Below, one piece after another: positions 5,307 through 35,890 of a stretch of 64,000 nucleotides of DNA (position 1 is its first letter; each line of letters begins with the position of its first letter). The notes beneath the pieces are model-generated. The model searched no databases and had not been told where the DNA came from. It saw only the letters and a list, made by a program, of their open reading frames with translations. Location of the stretch: NCBI GenBank assembly GCA_023920165.1, contig CP089275.1, forward strand, positions 2,232,001 through 2,296,000, written 5' to 3'. Source of the stretch: Curvularia clavata. Lineage: Eukaryota. Both the position numbers and the translations under genes were made by a program.

Positions 5307-6953
5307 ATGTCTCAACCACATCAAATCCAACAAGTTACTTCTGAAGCCGATATTCAATTAGCTATCTTTGAAATTAATTCTTGCCGTGTTCAAAGTGTTA
5401 AGCGTGCTGCTGAGATCTATAACGTTCCTCGAACAATAGTACAAGACTGACGCGCTGGAAAGCCCTCCCGACGCGACTGCGAGCCAAATTCGAAGCGTCT
5501 AAACAAGCTAGAAGAGGAGGCTATAGTTGAGCGTATTCTTGAAGAATCTACGCGAGGATTTGCGCCTACAAAGACTGACGTTCGAGCAATGGCTGATAAA
5601 CTGTTGCATGAGCGGGAGAGCAACCCTACTGGCAAGAACTGGGTTGATAACTTTGTTAAGCGAACTCCTAAGCTCCGTACGCGCTGGAGCCGTCCCTATA
5701 ATCACCAGCGAGCCGCCTGCGAGGACCCAGTGGCTATCCAGCGCTGGTTTGACTTGGTTCAGGCGATAAAGCAGAAGTGGGGTATCGTGGACGATGATAT
5801 CTACAACTTTGACGAGACTGGCTTTATAATGGGCAAGATTTCATCACAGTTAGTTATCACAGGCTTAGAGGGATATGGCAAAAAGAAGCGGATACAGCCA
5901 GGCAACCGTGAGTGGGTTACTGCGATCTAAGGCGTGGGCGCGTCGGGTCGCCGGATACTACCCTTCGTTGTCTTTGCGGGCAAGGTGCTTATTAACGTCT
6001 GGTTTGAAAATTTGCCGGCCGACTAGGTTCTTGAAGTTAGTCCTAATGGCTGGACGAATAATCAACTTGCTCTTGCCTGGTTAGAGCACTTTGACACCTA
6101 TACAAAGAGGCATACTGTGGGTAGGTATCGACTGCTTATTATCGACGGCCACGAGAGCCACTGCTCTATCGATTTTCAAGATCTTTGCAAGGAGAAGAAC
6201 ATTATCCTTCTCTGCATGCCTGCACACTCGTCTCACCTACTACAGCCTCTTGATGTCGCCTGCTTCTCGCCATTGAAGCGCAAGTATGGCGACGCTATTT
6301 CGGGCTTGGCACGTAACCGTACCAACTATATTAGCAAGGAGACCTTTCTGCCAGCCTTTAAGGCTGCTTTTGAGCAGTCTATTACGAAGGAGAATATCCA
6401 AGCTGGCTTTAGAGGCGCTGGTCTAGTCCCACATGAACCACAGGCTGTGCTATCAAAGCTTGATGTGGTGGTGCAGACACCATATCAATCACCGCGACGG
6501 GTAGCCGCCTGGGAGGCGCAGACACCACGCAACGCGCGCGAAGTCGAGGCTCAAATTGGTCTTATTCAACAGAGCGTGAGAAGGCGCCGTGGGTCCTCTG
6601 CCAACTCACTTACTGAGCAGATTGCGCAGTTGAGTAAGGGGGCTCAGCAAATGGCACATAATATGGTACTTCTGACAGAGAAAATAACTACTCTTCAAGA
6701 GGCTCTTGACGAATCAAATAAGCGTAAGAGCCGCAAGCGGCGATACGTACGGTCAGAAGAGACTCTTACTGTAGGCGAGGTACAAGAAGTATTAGCTGAA
6801 CAGGCGGGTAGCAGTCGTGGTGACGGTGAGAGTGCGTCGAAGAGGGTGCGAGGACAGAGGCGGTGCGGGCGTTGCAAGCAGACTGGACACAACGCTCGTA
6901 CCTGTGCAGTTGATATAGATAGTGCAAGCGATAGTGGCGATTCTGATAATTAA
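5307..6953 (+). pseudogene. Pogo/Fot1 transposase pseudogene (548 codons, 3 in-frame stops)
   Basis: A single frame runs from ATG 5307 to TAA 6953. It holds an HTH region, NFDETGF, LLIIDGHESH, HLLQPLDV and a C-terminal CCHC knuckle CGRCKQTGHNARTC. Stops: TGA 5448, TAA 5928, TAG 6024. Confidence 0.92.
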
Positions 6954-12008: not shown

Positions 12009-13346
12009 TTACAAAAAGCCCGAGTTCCACTTGCCCATGAGCAAATCTCTCGTGACCTCGAAACTGAGCCAGCTGCTTGCCATGCTGGGTGCGACCTTGA
12101 GGAGATTGGGAACAATGCCCTTGTACATGCCCCTGAGACCCTCGGTCTTGACGATCTGCTTGACGGCGTCGCCGATGCCCGCATATTGGTATCCCATACC
12201 GCTCATTGTGTTGATCTGAAATCGGCGTCGCAGGACATCGAATGGGTAGGTAATGGTCTGCGCAACAGCACCAGAGACGGCACCAGCTGCCAGCTTGCCA
12301 AGTGCGCTAGGGTCTTTCTCGCCATCACGTGTAAACTGGGTGCGGGCCATCTCGTAGACCATGAAGTTGAGACCAACATACGGTGCAACACCTGCTACGG
12401 TAGGGAGAATACCGCGGTACAGCGCCGGCACTCCGCCCTCGGTCTTGTACATGTTGATCAGTAATGCCCACATGCCTGGCAACTTCTGGCCGGCCTCTTT
12501 CTTAAGGCTCGAGAACGATGCGGACTGAATCGACAAGCGAGTGCGGACGATATCGAGCGGATACGTAAAGGTAACGGAAGTGATGCCGGCAAGTCCTCCG
12601 CAGAACAGTCGCTGGTAAGCGCCGAGCGGAGCACCTGGTTCACTCTCGAAGAACTATTGCAGGTCAGTGAATGCGGTTGATGAATCATACCGTGTCCCAT
12701 TATCCTTGTGGAACTTTGCCAGTCTTGTCCTCCTCTTCTTATTCCTATCACCATGTCCGCTCCAGCCCTCCTTTCCCCCCCAAGCCGAAACTTCCACCGA
12801 TTTGTTGTACCCTTCTCTCATGCGCACACCTGGCCTCCTCCCAACAAATTCAAAAAGCAAATCGCTCGCCTGAAAAGAAAAGAAACAGAGAGATCAACTT
12901 ACTCTCTTGTAGACATTGTAGGCGCTGAATTGCACAGCAGAGTATGGAACAATGCGAATGCAGTTGGTGCCATTTCCGGCCATGAAACCACGCCAGCCTT
13001 CCTCCCTCCACATCTTGGCTAGTGCCTTGGGAACCGACATCTTATATTCTTCACGGCCGACGCTCTGGACTTGGAACAGGATCTTGAGGCGCTCGAGGGG
13101 AGAGACGACGGTTCGGGAGACTGCGCCAGCTACACCGCCGGCAACAAACGAGGCAAGGACTGGCTGCGCAAGGACTTGTCGCATGCGCTCCAGGTTGGTA
13201 AGGTCGGGAGCGCCAACGGGCTGCATGCGTGTGTCAATTGGAGTTTTCAGGGTGCAAGTGGCGCTGATACATACCTTTACGCCCTCTCCTGGCTCGTCGC
13301 TCATAATGGCTGCTTGGGTTCGGGGCTTCTCCGAGGGACTCGACAT
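12009..13346 (-). CDS. Mitochondrial carrier family protein (YPR011C/SLC25A42-like)
   Basis: Three carrier repeats with Px[D/E]xx[K/R] signatures: PLERLK, PLDIVR and PFDVLR. Also GNGTNCIRIVPYSAVQF. Two introns, the second about 250 nt. Confidence 0.9.
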
Positions 13347-22531: not shown

Positions 22532-23878
22532 TCAAGTTCGTATTTCCGCAGCCTTCCTGAGTCGATTCATCACCGCAGCGGCAATATCGTCGCCCGACTT
22601 ATCATCAATACCCTCGACGTAGATTGTCTCCACACCCTTCTTATCCAGATCTCTCAGTGCCGAGAACAGTCCTCGTGCAATGTCTTCGGTGTTTGCCCCT
22701 AGATTGATGTCCCAAACATGCAGGCCCTCGGGCTTCACAAGGTAATGATTAGAACGCGGAATCTGGTGCTGCATAACAGACCGCAGCAGGTTGGATTGTC
22801 GCAACGAAGAGGCATTGGTATCTGTCGACACCTCGGGTTCCGGTGTAGAAAATGATTTCCATCCATTCGAAACTGATGACTCCACCTTCTCGGCATTCAA
22901 GCCCAGGGCGAGATTCCAACCCTTCGTCCTGACGATGCCAATTCTGCTCTTTCTTTTCAGCTCATCGGCTTTAGGACCATCAGCCCCAGCCTCGAAAAGC
23001 AGGACCGCCGCTTTCGGGCTGTAATGTCTGTACTTCATTCCCGGGGCGCGTGGTTTACTCGAGTCTTCCGCTTGCTTGTCTTTGTACCCAACCACCACCT
23101 TCTCCCAGCCAGGACATTGCCGCAGCTGTTCGACAGTTATACCTCCTGGTCGTAATATCGCTGGTGGACTGGACAACCCATCCACGACTGTGCTCTCAAC
23201 ACCGACCTCACAAGGTCCACCGTCGATTATCCGTCTAATCTTGCCATCCAAGTCATCGTAAACGTGCTCGGCAGCCGTGGGAGACGGACGCGTCGATGCG
23301 TTCGCAGACGGTGCAGCAAGCGGACGTCCACATAGCCTTAGAAGAGACAATGCAATGATAGATCGCGGCATTCGTGCACCAAACGTAGAGAGCCCTGCCG
23401 TCACCTCGGGCGCGAGAATCGACTTCTCGGGAGTGGGAAGAATAAGTGTAAGAGGACCAGGCCAGAAACGCTCAATCAACGGTCTGTAGATCTCAGGTAT
23501 AGGGTCCTTTCCATCGACCTTGCCATCTCCTGTGACATCCAGCTTCCCTGACAACAGTGCTCGTAGTTGTGGTAAAGAGTGTACATGCACAATCAACGGA
23601 TTATCAGCTGGTCGTCCCTTGCAAGCAAAGATCTGTTTTACAGCCGCACTCCTCGTCGCGTCTGCTCCTAGTCCATACACAGTCTCGGTAGGGAAAGCAA
23701 CGGGTATGTCCGTATCCACCAAGTCGCGCGCCGCTGCCTTCAGATTGCCGAAATGATCATCACCCTCTGCTGACTCGTCATATTCGATATGCCAGTCGTC
23801 GATCAAGTCGTCGCACTTTTTGAACGTAATCTTCCCCAATTTCTGGGGATCCACCGGCTGCATCCTAGTCTCGGCCAT
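22532..23878 (-). CDS. SUA5: Threonylcarbamoyl-AMP synthase Sua5 (t6A pathway)
   Basis: VAFPTETVYGLGADA, KGRPADNPLIVH, FWPGPLT, APSAN, GVESTV, PGMKYRHYSP and a C-terminal SUA5 domain (AVMNRLRKAA). The start is set at MAETRM; the frame is open upstream to 24220. Confidence 0.95.
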   Translation of the reverse strand: MAETRMQPVDPQKLGKITFKKCDDLIDDWHIEYDESAEGDDHFGNLKAAARDLVDTDIPVAFPTETVYGLGADATRSAAVKQIFACKGRPADNPLIVHVHSLPQLRALLSGKLDVTGDGKVDGKDPIPEIYRPLIERFWPGPLTLILPTPEKSILAPEVTAGLSTFGARMPRSIIALSLLRLCGRPLAAPSANASTRPSPTAAEHVYDDLDGKIRRIIDGGPCEVGVESTVVDGLSSPPAILRPGGITVEQLRQCPGWEKVVVGYKDKQAEDSSKPRAPGMKYRHYSPKAAVLLFEAGADGPKADELKRKSRIGIVRTKGWNLALGLNAEKVESSVSNGWKSFSTPEPEVSTDTNASSLRQSNLLRSVMQHQIPRSNHYLVKPEGLHVWDINLGANTEDIARGLFSALRDLDKKGVETIYVEGIDDKSGDDIAAAVMNRLRKAAEIRT

Positions 23879-24366
23879 GGTTGCGATGAACTGCTTGTGC
23901 GTTTGTGTAGTGTGGCGGCTGTTGAATCTAGATAACTCTCCCAGTCTGCAAAAAGTGTCGGGCGCGCTCAGCGTGCTATGTGGGATACAAAGGCGCGTTC
24001 GTGTAGCCACTTGCGCCAGACGACGTATGGGAACGGTATATGAGAAGACGTTCTTGGAATTGACATTTGGTATGCGGGGAGGGCACTTGGGCATCAGGGT
24101 GATGACTGGGTGAGGAAGCCAAAATTTCTCGGAAAGCTGTGGGGCTTCAGTTCCGAGCGTGGCGCGTGATGTCACTAGTGGGACCATGATTCTCCTTCCC
24201 TCTATCAAGGTAGGTTGCATGCACCATTATCGAGGTATATGATTTACCCCTTCACCATTGATAAACCTTGAACAGCACTCACATCCATGAGCAAAAGATA
24301 TATTCTGAACCCGCTAATCTAATTATACAGTATGCTTTGAAGGTATCCTCCCAGCAGCGCCACCCC

Positions 24367-25766
24367 CTACACCTCATTCGTGTAATAGTAAACCTTGCCT
24401 TCGAACAACCGCCGGGCTGTCCGAGAGACGACGCAGCGCTCAACAAAAGCAAATGACTCCGAGCTAGTAGCCAAGACGTCTACATTGATAGATCCGCTCG
24501 GATGCGAAAGACGCACTGTTCGTTGTCTCGGCAGTAAATCAGATGAGCTCTCGTCCAGGTCTGAGCAGGGACTTGGTGTGCGCTCGGGTGTGATTGATTG
24601 CCAGGAAGATTGCATTTTGGCTTCCTTTGCGAGACCGTGTGCTACTGTTCCTTCGATGCATACCGCTGATGCCAGACAGGCAGCGCCTGTAAGCTGTAGG
24701 CTCGGGTGAGGCTTGCCCATGCTGAAGGCCTGAACATGAATATCTGGAATTTCGGACGAATGGTCTGGTCGAGGAGACGATACAATGGCCAGCTTTGGTG
24801 TTCCTCGAACCTTTGCAGCAGCCTCTGTGTTTGAAGCGAGGCCCATGAGTACCGCACCTACACGCCGAATAGACTCCATGTGCTTCAAATAGTCTGCTGA
24901 GTCTTTGGATGCCGTCCTGAGAAATGGTGGTAATGACCTTTCGTCTACCAGGACAAAGGGGTTGGCAGCGTCTATCAAGGTTGCCTTGACCGAAAACTGC
25001 TCGCCGCCCTTCTCATTGACATCGATGATATCGCAGCGACTGCCGGTGGGAAACAAATTTCCAGTCATGCTGCCCGCAGGTTCGACAAAAGCAACCTTTA
25101 CTTCACTACCAGTTCCCTTGACCCCCGGAATCGCGTAATCTCCATCTTCAAGAAAAGAGCCGTCATCATCAACTTGAATCGTGTCGACGATTATCCGCGA
25201 TGTATTTGTATTGAATATCCGAACATCAAGCTGAGAAGCGAGTCAGCACTGAATCGTCTTTTTTTTTTAAATGATCAACCTACAGTGCGTTCCCCTGGAT
25301 TAGCACGAACCAGGCCTTCCTGAAGGGCAAACGGTCCCACGCCGGCGCACATGTTCCCACAATTACCGCTGAAGTCTACTGCTTCTTGCCCCACTGCAAC
25401 TTGCACAAACGTGTAATCCACGTCAACTCCCATTCTGGTTGATGGAGATACTACAGCGACCTTTGATGTTGTTGATGTCGCACCGCCTACGCCATCAATC
25501 TGCCGAGCATCTGAACCTTGCGAGCCCATAGTGGCGAGTAGAGGCCCTACCCAGTCCTTTTCTGAAGCCGGCAGGTCGTGACGGTGGATGAAAAGGCCTT
25601 TGGAGGTGCCAGCGCGCATGAGAACGGCGGGTAGGCTCCGCCGGACCCTCTTGGGTGCTCTTTCGTATGCCATTGGGAACTCTGGCAAGCGTATTGGTAT
25701 GGTTTGAGATACAGTCGAGAGCCTTGCTTTCTGAGCAATGGGTGACTTGGATAGCGTCCGAAACAT
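24367..25766 (-). CDS. PrpF/DUF453-family isomerase (aconitate/methylaconitate delta-isomerase-like), about 448 aa
   Basis: MRAGTSKG, QIDGVGGATSTTSKV, NCGNM, IFNTNT, SMGKPH and RTARRLFEG. Intron 25283-25231. Confidence 0.9.
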
Positions 25767-25952
25767 CTAAGGGTGTATAGAAATCCAGAAATATGTATCT
25801 CTGTCGATGTATCGTTGGACAGTTATATTACCTGTCATCACGGAAAAGGGTACAGCCCGTTTATATCTACAGTGACCCACCAGGTACATTTTGATTGCCG
25901 TTGGAAGATGAGGTCTTTTTGAAAGACGGGTAGCAGAAGTCAGGTGTCTTAC

Positions 25953-26020
25953 TCCCGCGGGAAGCTTTGTAAGTGGGTAGAGCAGAGCCGCGGGAAGAAA
26001 GGCCGAAGTTTTGCCGCGGC
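25953..26020. promoter_or_regulatory. Three CCGCGGnAA motifs in the PrpF-family gene promoter (candidate Zn2Cys6 sites)
   Basis: CCGCGG at 25955, 25988 and 26014. Each is followed by nAA on one strand. Confidence 0.6.
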
Positions 26021-26069
26021 TTCGGGACATCGTGGTTACCTCTTCGCTGAGAACCCAATTAATGGCCTC

Positions 26070-28439
26070 TTAAACATCCCAGTTCAGCATCGGGAACTTG
26101 TCCAAATCCGAGCTGTTGAAACCATAGAGAAGGTCGTCTGCGGTAAAAGTGCTTTCGCCAAATAGCTGCTGTTGACCTTGATACATCCAACTGCCATTGC
26201 TCTCGTACGCAGCATTGCCAGTATCATGTTGTCCAGTATGGGGTACAGCGGCAGCTATTTCGGCGGCAGCATATGGCCACTGTGGCGGCAGCGGTACATT
26301 TGCATTTGAAAAGTTTGTATTGCCAGGTGGTCCCATTTGTGCTGAGTTCGCAGTTTCTTGTTCGCGCTCTCGGACAAAACTTTGGATGATACCATCAATG
26401 TCGAGGCTTTGCAAACTGGGTTCACGACCCATAGATCTACCGGCTGTTACATCCGGAGTACTACTGTGGCTACCGCCACTAGTGTTCCTATCAATCTGAG
26501 CGTCATTAGGGTTCCGTGTAGTAACTCCCAGTCTCTTCATCAAATTTTGCACAATCGCGTTGGCACGTCGTACAGCCCAATTTGTTTCTTGGTTTTCGCG
26601 GAAGACTGCGAGACAAGTCTCTAAACTGCTGTGAGCTTGGGACCCCGGACCACGTCGAGCGGCGATGCGAGCGTGGATGGTTGCAGCGACGTAAGTTGCA
26701 TATGAAATCAGGTAGGGTGCTCTTCGTACACTGAACGCTTTATCATATGTCCGTAAGAGCTGCACAATATCGTCCGCTGATGTCGCACAAGCCATGAAGG
26801 AGTTCACAGAAATTGCACGTGAGGTGTTGTAGAGATGTCCGTCGGCAACGAACGGGCGGTGCAGCAGGATCATGAGAACATTGTAAAGAGCACTAGAAGT
26901 CTGTAAGTACATTCATGGCATTCTTTGATATTTATGATACTTACTGTAAGCTCAGAACGTGCGGTGGTGGCGTTACAGAAATTGTTTGTGTATCGACGGC
27001 AAGATGATCAGGCAAGTTTTCGCGCCATGTCTTTAGCTTCAGGTGAATGCTTTCTAGCTTGGACGACAGTTCTGCAGGACTCGAGTCGAAACTTCTTTCG
27101 GTATATATTGTGCTGAGTATGTCACTTAGGATGAGTGAGAGTTTGCAAAGGTGTCGGAATGTCGAAACGCTAAATGCAGGGGAACCCAGATAGTTGCTGT
27201 CTGACTGTGTAGAGTACGCAAAGGGTGTCCAGTGCTCAAGTTCTTCGTACGTGTCTTGGAATTTGATTGGGACAAGGGTGTCGGACTCTTTGATGCTTAC
27301 GGGTCGGCCCTGGTATAAGCTTTGGATCTTATCGACGACTGTACATCCAGTTAGCAAGTTTTATTTCAACGTAAAGGCATTGTTTACCAAATGCAGCCCA
27401 AAAAACACGCCTCCGTATTTCATAGTCTTCATCAGATAACCGGCGACTGCCTGCAAGATCTGGCGTATCGACGTGAATACCAAGATCAACTATCATGCGA
27501 AAGGCGAGGCCAGCATATATCCAGGCGGCACTACGTTCGTCGCCTAGAGCGAAGAGTGAGTTCGTCATGACCAACATTGCCTGAATCGTCGTAATGTCAC
27601 TTCTGTCTAGAGACCCTCCCAGAAGCTCACGTACTCGCTCACGAAACTGCCAGCCAGCAGTACGCACATCATCCGCTACTCGACGAACTTCGCGTCGCGG
27701 ACTGAACTTGGATGCACCAAAATATATCGCATTTAGAAGGAGTTTGGAGAAGTAGGGACCGCCACAAGCCATGTCACGCATGAAGGCTGGGCGATAGGTC
27801 GTAAGAAACGAGTGATGTTGTCGGTTCCAATGTAACGAAAGCAGATGCATACCCAACTCAGGCTCAACACCGTCAAAGTCTAGTTTACCTAGACGGAAGT
27901 TTACCGTCTCAAGTTGGCGTTGGCGCGCAGCTTCGGCAACAAGACCTCTTTCGATCCATTCATCAGACATTTTTGGATGCGCCTCGGCAGCTGGTCTGTC
28001 CTGGGAACCTTCGTCGAACAAGGCGCTTGTACGCCCATGATAGCTAGAAGAACCATTTGCAGTGACAACAATGCGCGAGACGGTGCTTGGCGTTGGGGCA
28101 GCAGCCTGAATAGGAGCTTGTTCTGTTGGAGCAGGTGTCGCTATAGGTACAGCGGATTCTGATGCTCTTTCTCGTCGGGGCGTCTTGCGTGGACGACTCG
28201 ATGCTTGGGGGGCATCATCTATGGGCTCATAATGGCAAGTCTCTCCATGCGTTTTGCAACTTGCGCACGAAGGCTTCTCGGCACTGCACTTGATCTGTCG
28301 ACTTCAGCGTCAAGCTCCACTCTCCGCCAGACATACACGAACGAACCTTTCTCCGACGGCAGAAGGTACAGGCCTCGGCAGCCCTCTTGCGCCGACGGCC
28401 CGTCTTAGTTGCATTGTCGCTTGTGTCACCTGGGCTCAT
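26070..28439 (-). CDS. Zn(II)2Cys6 transcription factor with fungal-specific middle homology domain
   Basis: ACTFCRRRK|IKCSAEKPSCANCKTHGETC across intron 1. Middle region YFSKLLLNAIY...RRRVFWAAF|VVDKIQSLYQGRP and ILLHRPF. Three introns. Confidence 0.92.
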
Positions 28440-28515
28440 TGCAATGACTACCCCAGTGATGTCAGAAAAAGGATGTGTGGTGCCAATGAGGAATGAACGG
28501 ACGGGAGAAGAAGAG

Positions 28516-28552
28516 TTGCCGCGGGTAACACATGATCTAAGACCCGCGGAAA
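28516..28552. promoter_or_regulatory. Two CCGCGGnAA motifs in the Zn2Cys6 gene's own promoter
   Basis: CCGCGG at 28519 and 28544, about 80-110 bp upstream of the ATG at 28439. Confidence 0.55.
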
Positions 28553-29059
28553 CGGGCTGGCTCCGATCCGGTAATCCGAAACTCCATCGGGAGATCTGCC
28601 TCACACCCACAAGCCACGACACGGGACCCAGTATGGTGCGCTGTGGCAAAGTCAATGAATACTACACCATCAGTACAGAGGCGTATGATGAGTAGGCTCT
28701 ACGTTCAAAGGAGCACTCCAGCGATAGGCTGCATCTGTCGCCGGTTCACGGAAAGATTGGGTTACAAAATCGCAATAATATAACTAATAGATTGCGTCCA
28801 CCGAGTTCGATACGAATATCCTTGTACTCATCATACAAAGAAATAAAACCCAAATCTTCCTGAGAACACAGAAGATTCCGTTCCCAAACATCAACGCCAA
28901 TGCATTCCCCAAAAAGCCGTGTTCCAACCGTGCAAGTAACAGAAGTAAAAGTCATACTGAAAGAATGGGTATCCAGCCAACGCCTGCCAGATGAGAACAA
29001 AGCCCTCCTTTATGCCCAGTCTCCCCCAAGAAAGTTTCGTCTTTTGTTTTTGAAGTTCC

Positions 29060-31020
29060 CTACGCAGACACGGAAATTTCAGATGGCCCTTGGACAATGC
29101 CTTCAGCAGGAGCATCGGATTCTCCGGTAGGAGCAGCTTGGGTCTGCGAAGCCAACTCACCGCTGGCACCCGTCTCGGCCCATTGACCCCAGAGACCACG
29201 CTTGGCGCGAATGCGTAAGGGAGCACCGAGGTTGTTGGCTGGTTGCTCGACTTTGATGGCGTCCTTGGTTGCCAGGACGAGCATCTCGAAGAACATCTTG
29301 GTGGCGTCTGTTCGTGATGTCCTGGCTTCTGGGAAGACATCTTGGAAGATGATACTTGTCTTCTGTCGTACTGATTCGCTCTCCTCAGCTTCAGGTCCGA
29401 ATTGCTCTCGTAGGAAATGAACAGCATGTTTTGTGCCAAGTGAGACAGGCCCGCCTTCATCGGGATGGATAAGAGGAGCTGTTGTGTCGTCAAAATTGTC
29501 TGGGACAGGGGAGAAGACGTCTTCCTCCTCTTCGCCAGCTGGCTGGAAATCTGGTTCATCGGGGAGTTGAATAATGTCCTCGGATCCTCCGAGCATGGTA
29601 TTTTCACCGCCAATTCCAATGTCACCACCTCCCAGAGTCGGCTCGTCTTGCTCGAATTCTAGTTGTAACTGTGGAGTCTTTTGTCTGTCGGCAGCTGTTG
29701 CTTCGTCGTCCTCAGCCTCGGCTTCAACGTTGACACCATCCCGCTTCCGCTTTTGACTTGGTCGCGAGATTACTTCCAAAGAAAGGATTCCGCGCAGCTC
29801 CGGAGCCCAACCTTGACTTCGACCGTCGCCAAGAATGCTCGATACAAAGCCTCCAGACTTTTGCATGTTGAGCAAAGCCATAAGAAGGGGATCACGGGGA
29901 AGAAAGGATGCAGGCTTAAGAATCTTCTCGCGGTTGTTCTGTTGCTCCTTCAGCTGTTGGCTGGATATCATTGTCTCGGCGTCGGCTCCAATGACCCTCC
30001 TGCGCTTGGCTCTGGCTTGATGGATCGATTCCTCTTCTTCCTCCTCTGGCTCAAAGGTGGTAGTTTGCTCGGCAATCTCCTGTTCAAGACGGGTAGCCTC
30101 TTCGTCTCCGAGCTCAGAGAGCGGTGACTCCTCGCGTTGTCGCACGGGCAGGTCGCCTGCTATTGAACCAGCTGGGAGATCTGTGTCATCCATCCCACCC
30201 ATGGTAATGTCCATATCGTCACCGAGATTCAGCTCTGGAGCAGGGGCTAGTTCCGTGGGAGCATCTTCTCCAAGGTCGATGCCCAGGTCGTCGTCGTCTA
30301 TCGTAAGGCCCTTGTCCAAGCCAGTGAACTCCTCGGATTGGTGGCGCTCAAGAGGCGCGTTACGGCCCATTTCGATACTTGTGCCCTCGTCGAATGGTGC
30401 TGGAGGCTCCAAGTCATCATCTTCTCCGATATCCAGGTTCAGGTCATCATCGGGAAGCTCCATTGGTTCCATACGCGGCTGCTCAATGCTGCCCGAGAGA
30501 AACTGGCTGTTGTCCCAATCCGGAACGGTGGTATTTCCAAGTTCAAGACTGCCACTAAGTGGCTGTGATAGGAGAAAAGACGGATCCGGCATGGGAGCTA
30601 GCAGGTCCAAATCCGTGATCTGATCCGGCAATATCAAGTTGGTTGGATTGGCGACATGTGTCTGAGTGGGAAGATCGATGTTTCCAGGACGGAAGGCCTG
30701 TAGACACGTCAGTGGCGGCGGTATTGGTCAGTCGAAGCTAAGTTTACCATTTTGATCTTCCACAAAGCCTCATTACAGTCATCTTGCAAGTAATGAGCCT
30801 TCTTGTGGTAGATGCGCACTTCACCAAGAAGCAGCTGCGCGTTCAATCGCAATGCAAGAGGGCCGCCAGCAGCCACCTCTGGTCGAATAATGACCTCGCA
30901 ACTCTCTGGGATCTTGTGCTGCAACACTTGAGCTTTGGTAAGCTTCTTCTGCTGATTCGAGGCGAGCCAGACGTGCGCAAGCGCACCCTGCTTGAAGAGG
31001 AGATCTTCGGGAAGAAACAT
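29060..31020 (-). CDS. RAD21: Mitotic cohesin kleisin Rad21/Scc1/Mcd1
   Basis: N-terminal domain LAHVWLA...KKLTK...PLALRLNAQLLLG.VRIY...KIKM|AFRPGNIDL. Separase-type site SIEMGR. C-terminal winged helix ATKMFFEMLVLATKDAIKVEQ. One intron at about 30698-30747. Confidence 0.95.
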
Positions 31021-31070
31021 GGCGGTGATTGAATGGAGGGGATGTGGAGGGCGGGGTGGAGGAAGAGCTG

Positions 31071-31137
31071 CGCGTCGGGTGGTCGTGTTTATGGCGACGC
31101 GTCGCGGGTCACGGGATGCGCAGGCGGCGGAGACGCG
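31071..31137. promoter_or_regulatory. MCB-like elements upstream of RAD21
   Basis: ACGCGT at 31097-31102 inside the palindrome GCGACGCGTCGC. Half-matches CGCGTC (31071) and GACGCG (31132). Confidence 0.6.
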
Positions 31138-32588
31138 CCAGTGACCTCCAGAGTAAGTGCCAAGAGTGCGCGCACACGTAGGGATGACAGTCAATGTGGG
31201 CGAAGGTCGGGCGACGATGGGGTTGCGGATGCGCTTGGTGGTGAAATGATGATGATGCGAGGCTGGGAAGGGCTGGGATCATGGACGGCGTGGCAGCCAC
31301 GCTCCAGCTACCTTTGCTTAGTCATGCTTCTATCCTCGCAAATGTCAAAGAAAACCCACCTTGGATCTCCGCAACCCCATTATCGTTATTATTGTTACAT
31401 GCTTGAATGAGCCAATAAGTTGTTCTATTACCGATGAACACTAGGCCCTCATGTCGCAGTAAAAAGACAGCGACCAGCATTCCCAACCAATGAAGGAAGT
31501 GCAGTCAACCTTGAACTGGTGTCATTTTTGTATCTGACACTGCTTTCATCTCAAGACGTTGTAGTGCAATCCAGTGCCAACTCTGGACTTATGAGAGGCT
31601 TCCAACGGCTTCCTCTGCGACCTAGAAGCTCCATTGATACTCATTCAATATATGGATATAACACCGTCAATCTGGTTGGGTCTCATTGGCGTTGACACAA
31701 CGACATTGCCAATGAAGCGAAGCCTCTACGTTGTTTGCCAGTCGCCACAGGATTGGCACGTTGGACCCGTTGTGGAACTGGGGTTTGAACATGCTTGAGC
31801 CAGTGACCTACTGATCTACTTACTGTACCTGCAATACCTACTTGATTGCAGACAGTTTCAATCGAGGGCTTTTGTAAAAGATTCCTTGACTACGGTTTGC
31901 TGCTATAGGCTCAACGAACACTGTAATGAAGTACAGATTATGGTGTCGTACACGGTAGTGGACATGCTAGTGACTACGTCGGTAGCGACCGCCAGAGACA
32001 TACAACCAAGTGAAATAGAACACATCGTTTACCAAATACAGCCACGGCAGCGATAGCTAAGGCGCAGCCATGACATCACCTGTAAGAAGCCGACGGCGCG
32101 CCAGGCCTTGGTTATGTCGCGTCGACATGTGCCTGCCAAGCCCAGATGCCGTAGTAGGGGTATGAGTCGCCGTGCAGCGCTTGGAAGTGCTTATCTTTTG
32201 CGGGTTGTGCTGCACAGCTGAAGATCAGTTTCGCTGTTTCAGGCCCCGACAATGCCGTCGCACAGTGATGGTCATGTTGCGTCAAACAGTTTATGGGATG
32301 AAACTCGGGGCTAGACGGCAACGCTCGACCCTGGCCACTCAGGGTACTACCGATGCTTTGACATTTTAGTCTCTCTACACCAGGCCAACCCCAAACTTCA
32401 AAAGACAGAATAAAGCCACTGCAGCCACAAAATTCCGTCGATTCTGTCCGCCAGCCGTCTTAACGTGCTCTTGCTAACAACAGTCTCAATGCGATAATCG
32501 AACGCCTCCGTCATCCCATACACGCTAATTGTCGACGGACAGGCCACGTTGGACCGCGGCGCATCAGTCGTCTCCTGGCCATGCCAAC

Positions 32589-35500
32589 ATGTCAAAAGCG
32601 TCGACACCCTCACTGCCCCTCTACGATGCCTCGAACCCATATTCCAAGTCCTCACGCCCTACGTCACCAATGCTGCAACCTCCAGAGCCGCATAAGCGCA
32701 GCGCGACAACCTCAGTACGTCATGCGCCTCGCTGACAGGCTGTACCGCACAGCGAACTGAGACGCTGCTAACACATACTCGCACAGTCAGTAACAGCTAC
32801 ATACTCACTCTTATCTGCACAAGATACCGCGCAAAAGCTCTCCACCTCCATTACGCACGGTCTCTCTGCGTCAGACGCCTCGGCGCGCATACACATCCAT
32901 GGCCTCAACGAACTCCCGCACGAAGAGCCCGAGCCGCTCTGGTTGCGGTTCGTCAAGCAGTTCAAGGAGACACTTATTATGCTGCTGCTAGGGTCCGCTG
33001 CTGTATCCTTCATTATGGGCAATTTGGAAGACGCGTTGAGCATAACAATGGCAGTAACCATTGTCGTCACCGTCGGCTTCGTACAAGAGTACCGTTCTGA
33101 GAAGTCGATCGAGGCTTTGAACCAGTTGGTCCCACATTCTGCACATATCATACGTGCCGGGACAGAACCATCGCGGGGCGGTCGGACACCCAATGGCATA
33201 GCAACAGAGGATATTGAATTGGACAATCTGAAGGATACTGCGGCCTCGCTATCAGCAGCCGAAAGGAAGTCTACGACTATCTCTGCAACTCTGTTAGTAC
33301 CAGGAGATCTAGTGCTGTTCCATACAGGTGACCGCATACCCGCCGACATTCGCATCACACACGCTGCCGACCTTAGCATCGACGAGTCGAACCTTACGGG
33401 AGAGAACGAGCCTGTCTCCAAGTCGCCTGATACCATTGCACCTCCTGTCGGGATTCAACGATCGTCTTCGCCCTTTTATGCGTCCGAAGCTGCTGGAACC
33501 GTCGGTGCAGACATCAGACTCAACGATCAGAAGAACATTGCCTTTATGGGTACTTTGGTCAGATCAGGATATGGGCAAGGAATTGTTATTGGTACAGGAG
33601 GCAACACGGAGTTTGGTGCCATTTCGGCATCCTTGGGTGAGATTGAGAGCCCAAGGACCCCTCTTCAGCTTTCTATGGATCGGTTGGGCAAGGATCTCAG
33701 CTACATGTCGTTTGGCGTCATTGCATTTATTGGTCTGGTAGGATTGTGGAGGGGGTGGGAGTTTCTCGAGGTCTTCCAGATTGCTGTTTCGCTTGCTGTC
33801 GCTGCCATTCCTGAAGGACTGCCAATTATTGTTACTGTTACTCTTGCATTGGGCGTACTGAGGATGTCCAAGCGCGACGCCATTGTCCGACGGCTACCTA
33901 GCGTGGAGACGCTGGCCTCGGTCAACGTCATATGTACTGACAAGACGGGTAAGTTCAGTGTGTTTGCTGCAATCATGTCCTTACTAACCCTGTCTAGGCA
34001 CATTGACAACGAACCATATGACTGTTACCAAAATATGGCATTTTGGCGAGTCTGCTCCCACAGATGTCAAGTTAAAACACGAGTCTACGGATCTCGATTC
34101 GCCCACACGCACCATCCTGCGGATCGGAAACATAGTCAACAACGCCCGTCTACTAAGCGACCAAGCTGCGTCGGCTTCTACAGCAGCTGTTCTCTCCTCA
34201 ACCCTAGGAGATGACAGCGCCTCAGCTAAAAGTCGATGGGTTGGCCAGCCTACGGATGTCGCTCTTCTTGATCTGATGGATGCTTTCGGAGAAGATGATG
34301 TGCGGGAAAGGCTCGGCGATCGCAAGTTCGAAACACCATTCAGCTCAGAAAGAAAGTGGATGGGTGTCGTGGTTGGCGGCACTTCTGGTAGTCACACTCC
34401 CGGCTCCGAACATAGCTACATCAAGGGCGCACTGGAAAGGGTTCTTGATCGCTGCGATACGTATGTCACCGAACAGGGCAAAGAGGTAGCGTTGGATCAA
34501 GCACGCAAGCAAGAAGCTATCAAGGCAGCAAATGCCATGGCTCAGGAGGGATTACGGGTACTCGGCTTCGCCAGCGGTGTCTCCAAAGCAAAGAAGAGGA
34601 GCGCTAATGGCACCGCCTCTCCAGCCCTGACCCCAAGTTCGGGACTTGGTGAGGATGAGCACTACCGCGGACTTGCGTTTGCTGGGCTTGTAGGCATGAA
34701 CGATCCTTTACGCAAGGGCGTCGACAGGGCCGTTCGACGCCTAATGGCTGGCAAAGTCAAGGTCATTATGATTACAGGCGACGCAGAAACCACGGCTTCT
34801 GCCATTGGAAAGAAACTGGGGATGCCAATTACCGCAAATTCTGCCCTTGGACAGTCTGTCATTCGCGGTGACGAGTTAGACCAAATGAGCGAGGAAGAGC
34901 TTGCTCAGGCCATCGCCACGACATCCATCTTTGCACGTACTAGTCCGGATCATAAGATGAAGATTGTTCGTGCACTTCAATCACGAGGAGATGTGGTTGC
35001 AATGACTGGTGATGGTGTCAACGACGCACCTGCGCTCAAGAAGGCAGATATCGGTATCTCCATGGGCCGACTGGGCACAGATGTTGCAAAAGAAGCCGCC
35101 GATATGATCCTGACAGACGATAATTTTGCGACAATCTTGAACGCAATCGAAGAAGGAAAGGGCATCTTTTACAATATTCAGAACTTTCTTACATTCCAGC
35201 TTAGCACTAGTGCAGCCGCGCTGAGCTTAGTTCTCCTCAGCACGTTTCTGGGCTTCCCGAACCCGCTCAACGCCATGCAGATTCTGTGGATCAGTAAGTT
35301 CACAACAGGTTTTCAGCTTGATTGTATGCTAACCTTCACTGCTAGATATTCTCATGGATGGTCCACCCGCACAGTCGCTCGGTGTTGAACCTGTCGACCC
35401 AGCAGTCATGGCTCTTCCTCCACGTCCCCGTCAAGCCCGCGTCCTCACCCGCCCTCTGATCCAACGTGTTCTCCAGTCCGCGACCATCATCATGCTCGGT

Positions 35501-35890
35501 ACGCTCACCACCTACTACCGAGAAATGTCCGACGACAACATGGTTACAGCGCGCGACACGACCATGACTTTCACCTGCTTTGTCCTCTTCGACATGTTCA
35601 ACGCTCTGACCTGCCGCTCTTCCAGCAAATCTGTTCTTGCTGGAGAAATCGGCGTCTTCGATAACAAAATGTTCAACTATGCTGTCGCAGGAAGTTTGCT
35701 GGGTCAACTAGCTGTGATTTACTTCCCCCCACTGCAAAGTGTTTTCCAGACTGAAGCACTGAGTTTGGGTGACCTAGCGCACCTGGTCGCCGTTGCAAGC
35801 TGCGTCTTCTGGGCCGATGAGGCCCGCAAATGGTATATACGGTGGAAGAGCAGGCGAGGATTTGGTGGGGGGTATAGTACGGTTGTATAA
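32589..35890 (+). CDS. PMR1: Golgi Ca2+/Mn2+ P-type ATPase (SPCA/Pmr1)
   Basis: [21 protein letters not shown] (split by an intron), [25 protein letters not shown] and [21 protein letters not shown]. Three introns. Confidence 0.96.

Follow-up and report, generated by a model that had tools for sequence, protein, structure and literature searches.

An apparently undescribed fungal regulon around a PrpF-family isomerase, probably for use of a plant acid such as trans-aconitate

Introduction

In a 64,000-nucleotide stretch of the Curvularia clavata genome (assembly GCA_023920165.1, contig CP089275.1, forward-strand positions 2,232,001 to 2,296,000; here called the window), the genes for a PrpF-family isomerase and a Zn2Cys6 transcription factor lie in tandem, with CCGCGG hexamers clustered in front of each. 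A preliminary description of the sequence read them as a self-activating two-gene module for an unsaturated organic acid. The locus thus raises the question of what else such a factor would control, how far the arrangement extends beyond this genome, and which acid it would serve. Our analysis indicates that isomerase and factor are very probably half of a conserved, pathway-specific catabolic regulon, and that this gene set probably equips the fungus to import and burn a plant acid, for example trans-aconitate.

Grasses contain much trans-aconitate, an inhibitor of aconitase (PMC8871043, PMC11495376), and PrpF-family aconitate isomerases accompanied by a permease and a regulator have been published (PMC11495376, PMC4720413). 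In the parts of the literature available to us, only bacteria are described as assimilating it through an isomerase; for yeasts, the route given is methylation. A conserved fungal regulon that imports, isomerises and burns such an acid would, if real, fill that gap.

Two spliced genes with clustered promoter sites

The genes and promoter elements are as follows (window coordinates; no strand is assigned to the sites):

24367..25766, - strand: PrpF-family isomerase gene, 448 amino acids (aa), exons 25766-25284 and 25230-24367, Pfam PF04303 in both
26070..28439, - strand: Zn2Cys6 transcription factor gene, 738 aa, four exons, introns at about 28346-28295, 27387-27339 and 26944-26893
25953..25962: site 1, TCCCGCGGGA, CCGCGG at 25955
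25986..25995: site 2, AGCCGCGGGA, CCGCGG at 25988
26003..26021: site 3, TGCCGCGGCT (26012-26021), CCGCGG at 26014, followed on the - strand, 8 bases downstream, by a further CGG
28517..28526: site 4, TGCCGCGGGT, upstream of the factor, CCGCGG at 28519
28542..28551: site 5, ACCCGCGGAA, upstream of the factor, CCGCGG at 28544
25860..25865, - strand: TATA-like box of the isomerase gene, found by reading the sequence; its ATATA columns are conserved in six aligned promoters

In public contigs all four introns are spliced out; the library type can only be guessed, and it is the spliced joints that show RNA. The isomerase intron is joined in all four RNA-contig runs and the factor's three introns in runs X1 and X2, leaving open frames of 448 and 738 aa. 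Both gene identities given in the preliminary description were borne out. The two isomerase exons score 145 and 172 bits against PF04303 (cut-off 27), and the factor scores with PF00172 and PF04082 and keeps all six cysteines inside its spliced frame, as expected of a Zn2Cys6 protein. Pfam matches likewise confirm that the tandem - strand pair lies between SUA5 (PF01300/PF03481) and RAD21 (PF04824/PF04825). This setting is local, however: elsewhere SUA5 adjoins none of 80 related loci and RAD21 only two.

A 303-bp gap separates the factor stop (26070) from the isomerase ATG (25766) and holds sites 1-3; sites 4 and 5, with 19 bases between their hexamers, lie about 80-110 bases before the factor ATG (28439). 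The spans reported earlier, three hexamers within 65 bp and two within 31 bp, are correct. All five sites read CCGCGGnAA on one strand or the other, but not all on the same strand as had been claimed (three on +, two on -). The window contains seven copies of CCGCGGnAA against 1.85 expected, a number reached in none of 100 shuffles, and the remaining two (2889, 58088) are singles. For the hexamer alone, the window count of 15 is no more than chance would give (15.6 expected); the signal lies in clustering plus flanks. At the genome rate of CCGCGG (681 sites in 32.36 Mb), the probability of at least three in the 303-bp gap is 4e-8 and of at least two in 460 bp is 5e-5, for a motif chosen post hoc. 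The site 3 layout, CCGCGG-N8-CGG, recurs in the isomerase promoters of related loci L010, L012, L013, L015 and L016; genome-wide its 127 hits, fewer than the 331 of a reversed control, are uninformative.

RNA contig X1 continues from the factor across the isomerase promoter (25767-26069) without a splice, and X2 joins the 3' regions of SUA5 and the isomerase. Transcripts may overlap at 25767-26069, where read-through from the factor could cross sites 1-3. Merged factor-PrpF gene models exist in databases (Bipolaris, Fusarium, Beauveria, Aspergillus, Paramyrothecium, Clohesyomyces). We rejected a protein fusion because a contig spanning two genes proves no single transcript; X1 is unspliced over the 303-bp gap after the factor stop, and gene order varies.

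The factor is linked to an isomerase and transporters across fungi

A metagenome scan with the factor alignment returned 102 relatives, of which the best 80 were used (62 after collapse at 95% identity). Linkage was counted in the 13 non-redundant loci with at least 3 kb on both sides of the factor. An isomerase gene is present in 12, a citrate-carrier-like mitochondrial carrier in 10, an ACS-type major facilitator superfamily (MFS) permease in 8 and a sugar porter in 4. With at least 1.5 kb upstream of the factor, 26 of 31 loci have the carrier, usually divergent from the factor. What had been described as a two-gene module is in fact one of four to five genes, and its core linkage is not species-specific. 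Gene order and orientation vary widely among loci. Homologue lists extend the linkage across Dothideomycetes, Sordariomycetes and Eurotiomycetes, with adjacent factor and PrpF locus tags in Monosporascus, Pyrenophora and Pyricularia; the nearest homologues with a species name come from Alternaria, Exserohilum, Bipolaris and Pyrenophora.

Among named clusters, those nearest to the carrier are citrate/tricarboxylate carriers, and the permease best matches the D-galactonate-transporter model (ACS/Dal5-type). Among the 146 of 187 neighbouring open reading frames (ORFs) scanned with Pfam, no second recurring enzyme joins the isomerase, there are no prpB, prpC or acnD neighbours, and no Tad1-type lyase-family ORF occurs. 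Literature searches, which left subscription journals mostly uncovered, found no paper on the cluster, factor or motif, and no tie to Aspergillus niger ctpB was established. The regulon appears real and conserved, apparently undescribed, and of a familiar type, the pathway-specific Zn2Cys6 catabolic cluster.

Some loci differ in content. L081, L082 and L086 carry a divergent cluster with a PrpD-family gene, an MFS gene, the factor (66%), PrpF and a nearby P450; the motif is absent before their factor and isomerase (for L082 and L086 this is judged from their similarity to L081), and their parts list recalls itaconate-type clusters. In L064, L066, L069 and L074 the factor accompanies a more distant carrier (45%), followed in L066 and L074 by an FAD-linked oxidase; L074 has long flanks yet no PrpF. 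This second group is possibly a sister module for another acid. In the close relatives L010 and L044 a P-type ATPase gene follows the isomerase where SUA5 does here; in the window (22532-35890) a P-type ATPase lies beyond RAD21, pointing to a local rearrangement relative to those loci.

CCGCGG is the leading motif of the cluster promoters

We collected up to 600 bases before each cluster gene, dropping stretches under 200 bases and genes lacking a 5' end, and reduced 130 promoters to 72 non-redundant ones, with shared divergent promoters counted once. De novo, CCGCGG ranks first of all hexamers, at 90 occurrences against 9.95 in shuffled sequence (maximum 18 in 40 shuffles), and the motif is conserved across fungi. 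The variants CCACGG/CCGTGG are enriched too (72 against 19). At least one CCGCGG is present in 10 of 13 isomerase, 14 of 21 factor, 16 of 22 carrier, 9 of 10 MFS and 3 of 6 porter promoters. The nAA flank proposed earlier did not hold up: only 32 of 88 sites have it, and the consensus is instead W[CGT]CCGCGG[ACG]W. Counts of this 10-mer are 65 for 37.7 kb of promoter sequence, 3 for 185.7 kb of flanking DNA and 2 for 119.9 kb of coding regions in the clusters; they are partly circular, as the consensus was derived from the same promoters. Among other motifs in the cluster promoters, that of AreA is not enriched and that of CreA is marginal (199 against 165, shuffle maximum 197).

The motif recovers displaced members elsewhere in the genome

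Before the cluster was recognised, eight loci had been chosen by eye among 50 listed of the genome's 54 CCGCGG pairs. Six held unrelated genes. Another, L090 on contig C3 (about 475,500-478,800), holds a CTP1-like carrier and an ACS/Dal5-type MFS gene in tandem, with two and three sites in front; they are 81-82% and 83-95% identical to their closest cluster members. The further regulon members predicted earlier were thus recovered by motif, as a mitochondrial carrier and a permease on another contig.

Scanning the genome with the consensus from other species, and defining a pair by a gap of 0-61 bases, gave 788 single sites in 32 Mb and 10 pair matches at eight loci, where a uniform model expects 1.2 pairs. 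The count by itself is modest; it is the identity of the marked genes that carries weight. Five of the eight loci are cluster-linked, marking the isomerase, factor, carrier, MFS permease and a sugar porter on contig C4. In L015 a relative of this porter (72-85%) is situated about 6 kb away from the isomerase, and the C4 sugar-porter-type permease is a probable fifth regulon member. Allowing CCACGG variants added no paired locus in the genome. The paralogues have no paired sites: the genome's second PrpF gene and the CTP1-like L106 have none, nor does L107, and L105 has one site.

The other paired loci hold diverse genes. A methyltransferase gene at C8:227031 was considered as a trans-aconitate methyltransferase and rejected by NCBIfam and PDB comparison; its sites lie inside the first exon. 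At C6:1264390-1264460 (L112) a good consensus pair, downstream of a DDE transposase and close to a gene resembling non-ribosomal peptide synthetases, precedes another Zn2Cys6 gene by about 70-130 bases; this is possibly a second-tier target, or chance. A consensus pair at C3:4227034-4227101 (L111) lies between an amino-acid permease gene and a divergent fungal-rhodopsin-domain gene.

The isomerase forms its own clade and may be dually targeted

Full-length tests used P0001, a relative 94% identical over the second exon. Its model matches 3G7K and 2PVZ (E about 1e-35, TM-score about 0.7), a two-domain DapF-like fold, and its alignment to solved structures places Lys102, Cys136 and His336 in the isomerase, residues invariant in 30 aligned sequences. 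Fold and catalytic-type residues are thus those of bacterial PrpF (2PVZ/2PW0), Mii (3G7K) and LigU (6P3J), but identity is only 32-33%, no AcnD or ring-cleavage genes lie nearby, and where Shewanella PrpF has Met-Gly following the His, the fungal enzyme has Gln-Leu. The equivalog cut-offs are missed as well, for 2-methylaconitate isomerase PrpF (TIGR02334, 239 against 440.55 bits) and for 4-oxalomesaconate tautomerase LigU/GalD (NF033377, 286 against 440).

In a tree of 46 sequences, calculated without three bacterial rows, 12 fungal cluster isomerases form a clade apart from LigU/GalD, Ralstonia AcnD-linked PrpF and a pCT281 protein taken as TbrA. Because of this separation, and with no bacterial homologue above 42% identity, the substrate cannot be transferred by phylogeny; the same ceiling led us to reject a recent transfer from bacteria. 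The sister group (support 91/84) comprises this genome's second PrpF, an Agrobacterium protein and a Rhodococcus protein whose gene is flanked by aconitase, citrate symporter and Tct genes. Across 11 of 80 bacterial homologue loci scanned, a CitMHS/MatC carrier occurs at six, TctABC at one and an adjacent aconitase at three. The second PrpF gene (C6:2392624-2393856, L099) is 31% identical to the cluster type, has no CCGCGG nearby and adjoins a gene whose product looks GrpE/Mge1-like by eye.

The isomerase begins with an additional element:

25674..25766, - strand: N-terminal extension of 31 aa, mitochondrial-presequence-like, followed by a second in-frame ATG (Met32 at 25673)

All 13 distinct related sequences with upstream cover have a similar extension and second Met; the L012 row has only nine residues before a stop or frame break. 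Residues 1-31 of the predicted structure have a predicted local distance difference test score below 50, and RNA contig X9 starts at 25815, upstream of the first ATG. Judged from sequence, extension and Met32 could possibly provide dual targeting. In Verticillium, VDAG_01341, a methylitaconate isomerase by annotation name, is listed as a Pex30 interactor in the accessible part of PMC13340144, which describes no assay of its activity. A factor homologue is tagged VDGE_01342, and VDAG_01341 may be the cluster enzyme.

Site geometry and the factor's own promoter

Gal4-type sites are CGG-N11-CCG and Pdr1/3-type sites everted CCGCGG. A spacer scan gave 41 strand-wise matches for CCRCGG-N11-CCG, against 0-10 at each other spacer from 0 to 20. 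Among the more distant loci, represented by 52 promoters, the 11-base gap is seen 14 times, and seven of these loci carry the complete palindrome CCRCGG-N11-CCGYGG, in 11 promoters altogether; the palindrome contains both known geometries, its inner triplets matching Gal4. Unlike Gal4 sites, those of this genome and its close relatives nearly lack the 11-base gap (once in 20 close-locus promoters, never in this genome's five cluster promoters), and gaps of 19-21 recur instead (five and four times, respectively, both small numbers). Genome-wide, the palindrome has five hits here against two in a control, none at cluster genes. Most factor orthologues show, by eye, a basic arm before the zinc cluster and no obvious coiled coil after it, a layout that would fit half-site binding with flexible pairing.

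As carrier and factor usually lie divergently around one promoter, most loci cannot test feedback. Where the promoter is known not to be shared, six of eight non-redundant loci have a site or variant before the factor (L030, L043, L044, L049, L055, L056). The intact carrier-factor spacer of L013 aligns with this genome's carrier promoter and, weakly, with its factor promoter, at the same site; this double alignment suggests that sites 4 and 5 may be relics of an ancestral bidirectional carrier-factor promoter. Feedback on the factor is a likely prediction from these promoters, and autoregulation is plausible, though weaker than target regulation.

We consider it improbable that the sites are read by another protein, such as NirA, a Pdr1/3-like factor or a general CGG binder, or that sites 4 and 5 are relics without feedback. 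Automatic names do label the factor NirA-like, and the L013 alignment and the siteless factor promoter of L010 would suit relics; nevertheless, six of the eight informative loci keep a site or variant before the factor, and genome-wide the paired sites mark cluster genes almost exclusively. The Pdr1/3 drug-response regulon has a TCCGCGGA element before ABC transporters, but only 8 of the 90 promoter sites read TCCGCGGA, and no ABC transporter stands at the eight paired loci. Nor does a nitrate gene, the expected NirA target, and the NirA motif CTCCGHGG (from the accessible part of PMC5348485) is not enriched in cluster promoters (5 against 4.5 shuffled).

Discussion

The best reading overall, which we regard as slightly favoured, is an inducible system for importing trans-aconitate and channelling it into the tricarboxylic acid (TCA) cycle. 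The factor would bind paired W[CGT]CC[GA]CGG[ACG]W sites, themselves observed, before each gene including its own. The inducing acid would enter through the permease, the D-galactonate-transporter (ACS) family being importers. By chemistry established for its family, the isomerase would convert the acid into a TCA-cycle intermediate, most simply trans- to cis-aconitate, and the carrier would move the tricarboxylate into mitochondria to aconitase, with a Met1 form of the isomerase in the matrix and a Met32 form in the cytosol. The outcome would be carbon use together with removal of an aconitase inhibitor. Since the isomerase is the sole recurring enzyme among transporters, its product should be a central metabolite, usable at once, and the CTP1-like carrier implies a tricarboxylate bound for mitochondria. 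Conversion of trans- to cis-aconitate would fit both arguments; trans-aconitate is our best guess, a reasonably likely one, and itaconate and propionate are disfavoured.

Published systems offer two parallels. The trans-aconitate assimilation system TarR/TarA/TarB of Bacillus velezensis FZB42 likewise combines a PrpF-family isomerase, an MFS permease and an adjacent pathway-specific activator with repeated promoter sites, and tarR is induced by trans-aconitate; unlike the fungal system it has a LysR regulator, TTATAA sites and no mitochondrial carrier, as far as described in the accessible part of PMC11495376, where TarA and TbrA are only 33% identical. The Adi1/Mtt1/Itp1/Tad1/Ria1 cluster of Ustilago maydis also unites a PrpF-family isomerase, a CTP1-like mitochondrial carrier, an MFS protein and a specific regulator, but is biosynthetic and exporting, with decarboxylase Tad1, a helix-loop-helix regulator, an EmrD-like MFS and cytosolic Adi1 (PMC4720413, seen in part). 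The present module has no decarboxylase; its regulator is a Zn2Cys6 factor, its MFS is ACS-type and its isomerase bears a presequence-like extension. By analogy, the module would be a mirror image of Adi1/Mtt1.

Rather unlikely, in our view, is that the same regulon serves another unsaturated di- or tricarboxylate (2-methylaconitate, methylitaconate, itaconate/citraconate, or oxalomesaconate formed when aromatic rings are cleaved) whose downstream enzymes would be encoded at other loci. The best solved-structure hit is indeed a 3-methylitaconate isomerase, the oxalomesaconate tautomerase model outscores the prpF model, and some loci carry extra genes (a lactonase and a CMD-family gene in L032, a PrpD-family gene and P450 in L081). 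Yet both scores fall short of the models' cut-offs of about 440 bits, the clade lies apart from LigU/GalD and AcnD-linked PrpF, and neither the cluster nor the eight motif-pair loci show a recurring CoA-transferase, hydratase, lyase or dioxygenase; itaconate breakdown requires Ict, Ich and Ccl, according to the part of PMC9875883 available. The reverse direction, in which cis-aconitate leaves mitochondria, is isomerised and is secreted as trans-aconitate (a chelator or antagonist), as in the first half of the Ustilago itaconate cluster or Bacillus tbrAB, strikes us as quite unlikely. Its parts list equals Mtt1, Adi1, Itp1 and a regulator (PMC4720413), and aconitate isomerases favour the trans product, the transporter being thought to set direction (PMC11495376; both seen in part). 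However, the MFS here is ACS-type while Itp1 resembles the exporter EmrD (PMC4720413, Table 1), the tbrA neighbour is a DMT-family transporter, a second, sugar-porter-type permease joins some clusters, no decarboxylase recurs, and a matrix-targeted isomerase would produce an aconitase inhibitor beside its target.

Several observations weigh against the import of trans-aconitate under this factor. CCGCGG is missing from 3 of 13 isomerase and 6 of 22 carrier promoters, for the most part at loci with a divergent factor, and from the factor's own promoter in the close relative L010 and in L081. The flank control for the 10-mer mixes coding and non-coding DNA, a reversed-pattern control, of a commoner motif, gave five pairs, and three of the eight paired loci (C8:227031, C3:4227034, C6:1264390) have no cluster tie. 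The pCT281 protein taken as TbrA is 30% identical and falls with YbhH/LigU/GalD on a long branch, the 42% ceiling on bacterial identity counts here too, and the bacterial loci were hand-picked. Binding, feedback, direction, substrate and targeting are all inferred from the genes, splicing, linkage, sites and split that we observe.

Taken to its full extent, the import reading would be an undescribed eukaryotic pathway for sensing and assimilating trans-aconitate, widespread in filamentous ascomycetes, comprising a Zn2Cys6 factor that responds to a ligand, an isomerase with dual targeting and a mitochondrial carrier dedicated to it, whose operator geometry changed (N11 palindrome in distant fungi, N19-21 pairs here) and whose regulon outlived cluster break-up. 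We put this whole forward tentatively, at somewhat under even confidence. If true, it would make food of an acid that serves grasses in defence and inhibits aconitase, and would supply a eukaryotic aconitate sensor and a target against product loss in fungal aconitate or itaconate production. The defined factor-site pair makes the fungal regulon directly testable, and the case is one of a regulon surviving cluster break-up and recoverable from motif alone.

Additional observations

Two further modules in the genome contain factor paralogues. At C2:5702400-5713100 (L116, L117) a parallel module holds an MFS gene, a CTP1-like carrier (39%), an amidohydrolase/decarboxylase, a sugar porter and a factor paralogue (37%); it adjoins a gene resembling polyketide synthases, and CCGCGG is entirely absent. 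At C6:2210500-2220300 (L118, L095) a factor paralogue (43%) accompanies an MmgE/PrpD-family gene, a short-chain dehydrogenase and an MFS gene, with a non-consensus CCGCGG pair before the PrpD gene. Elsewhere in the window lie a DDE_1 transposase fragment (6027-6953) and a further mitochondrial carrier gene (12042-12614), 30% identical to the cluster carrier, with a single CCGCGG inside.

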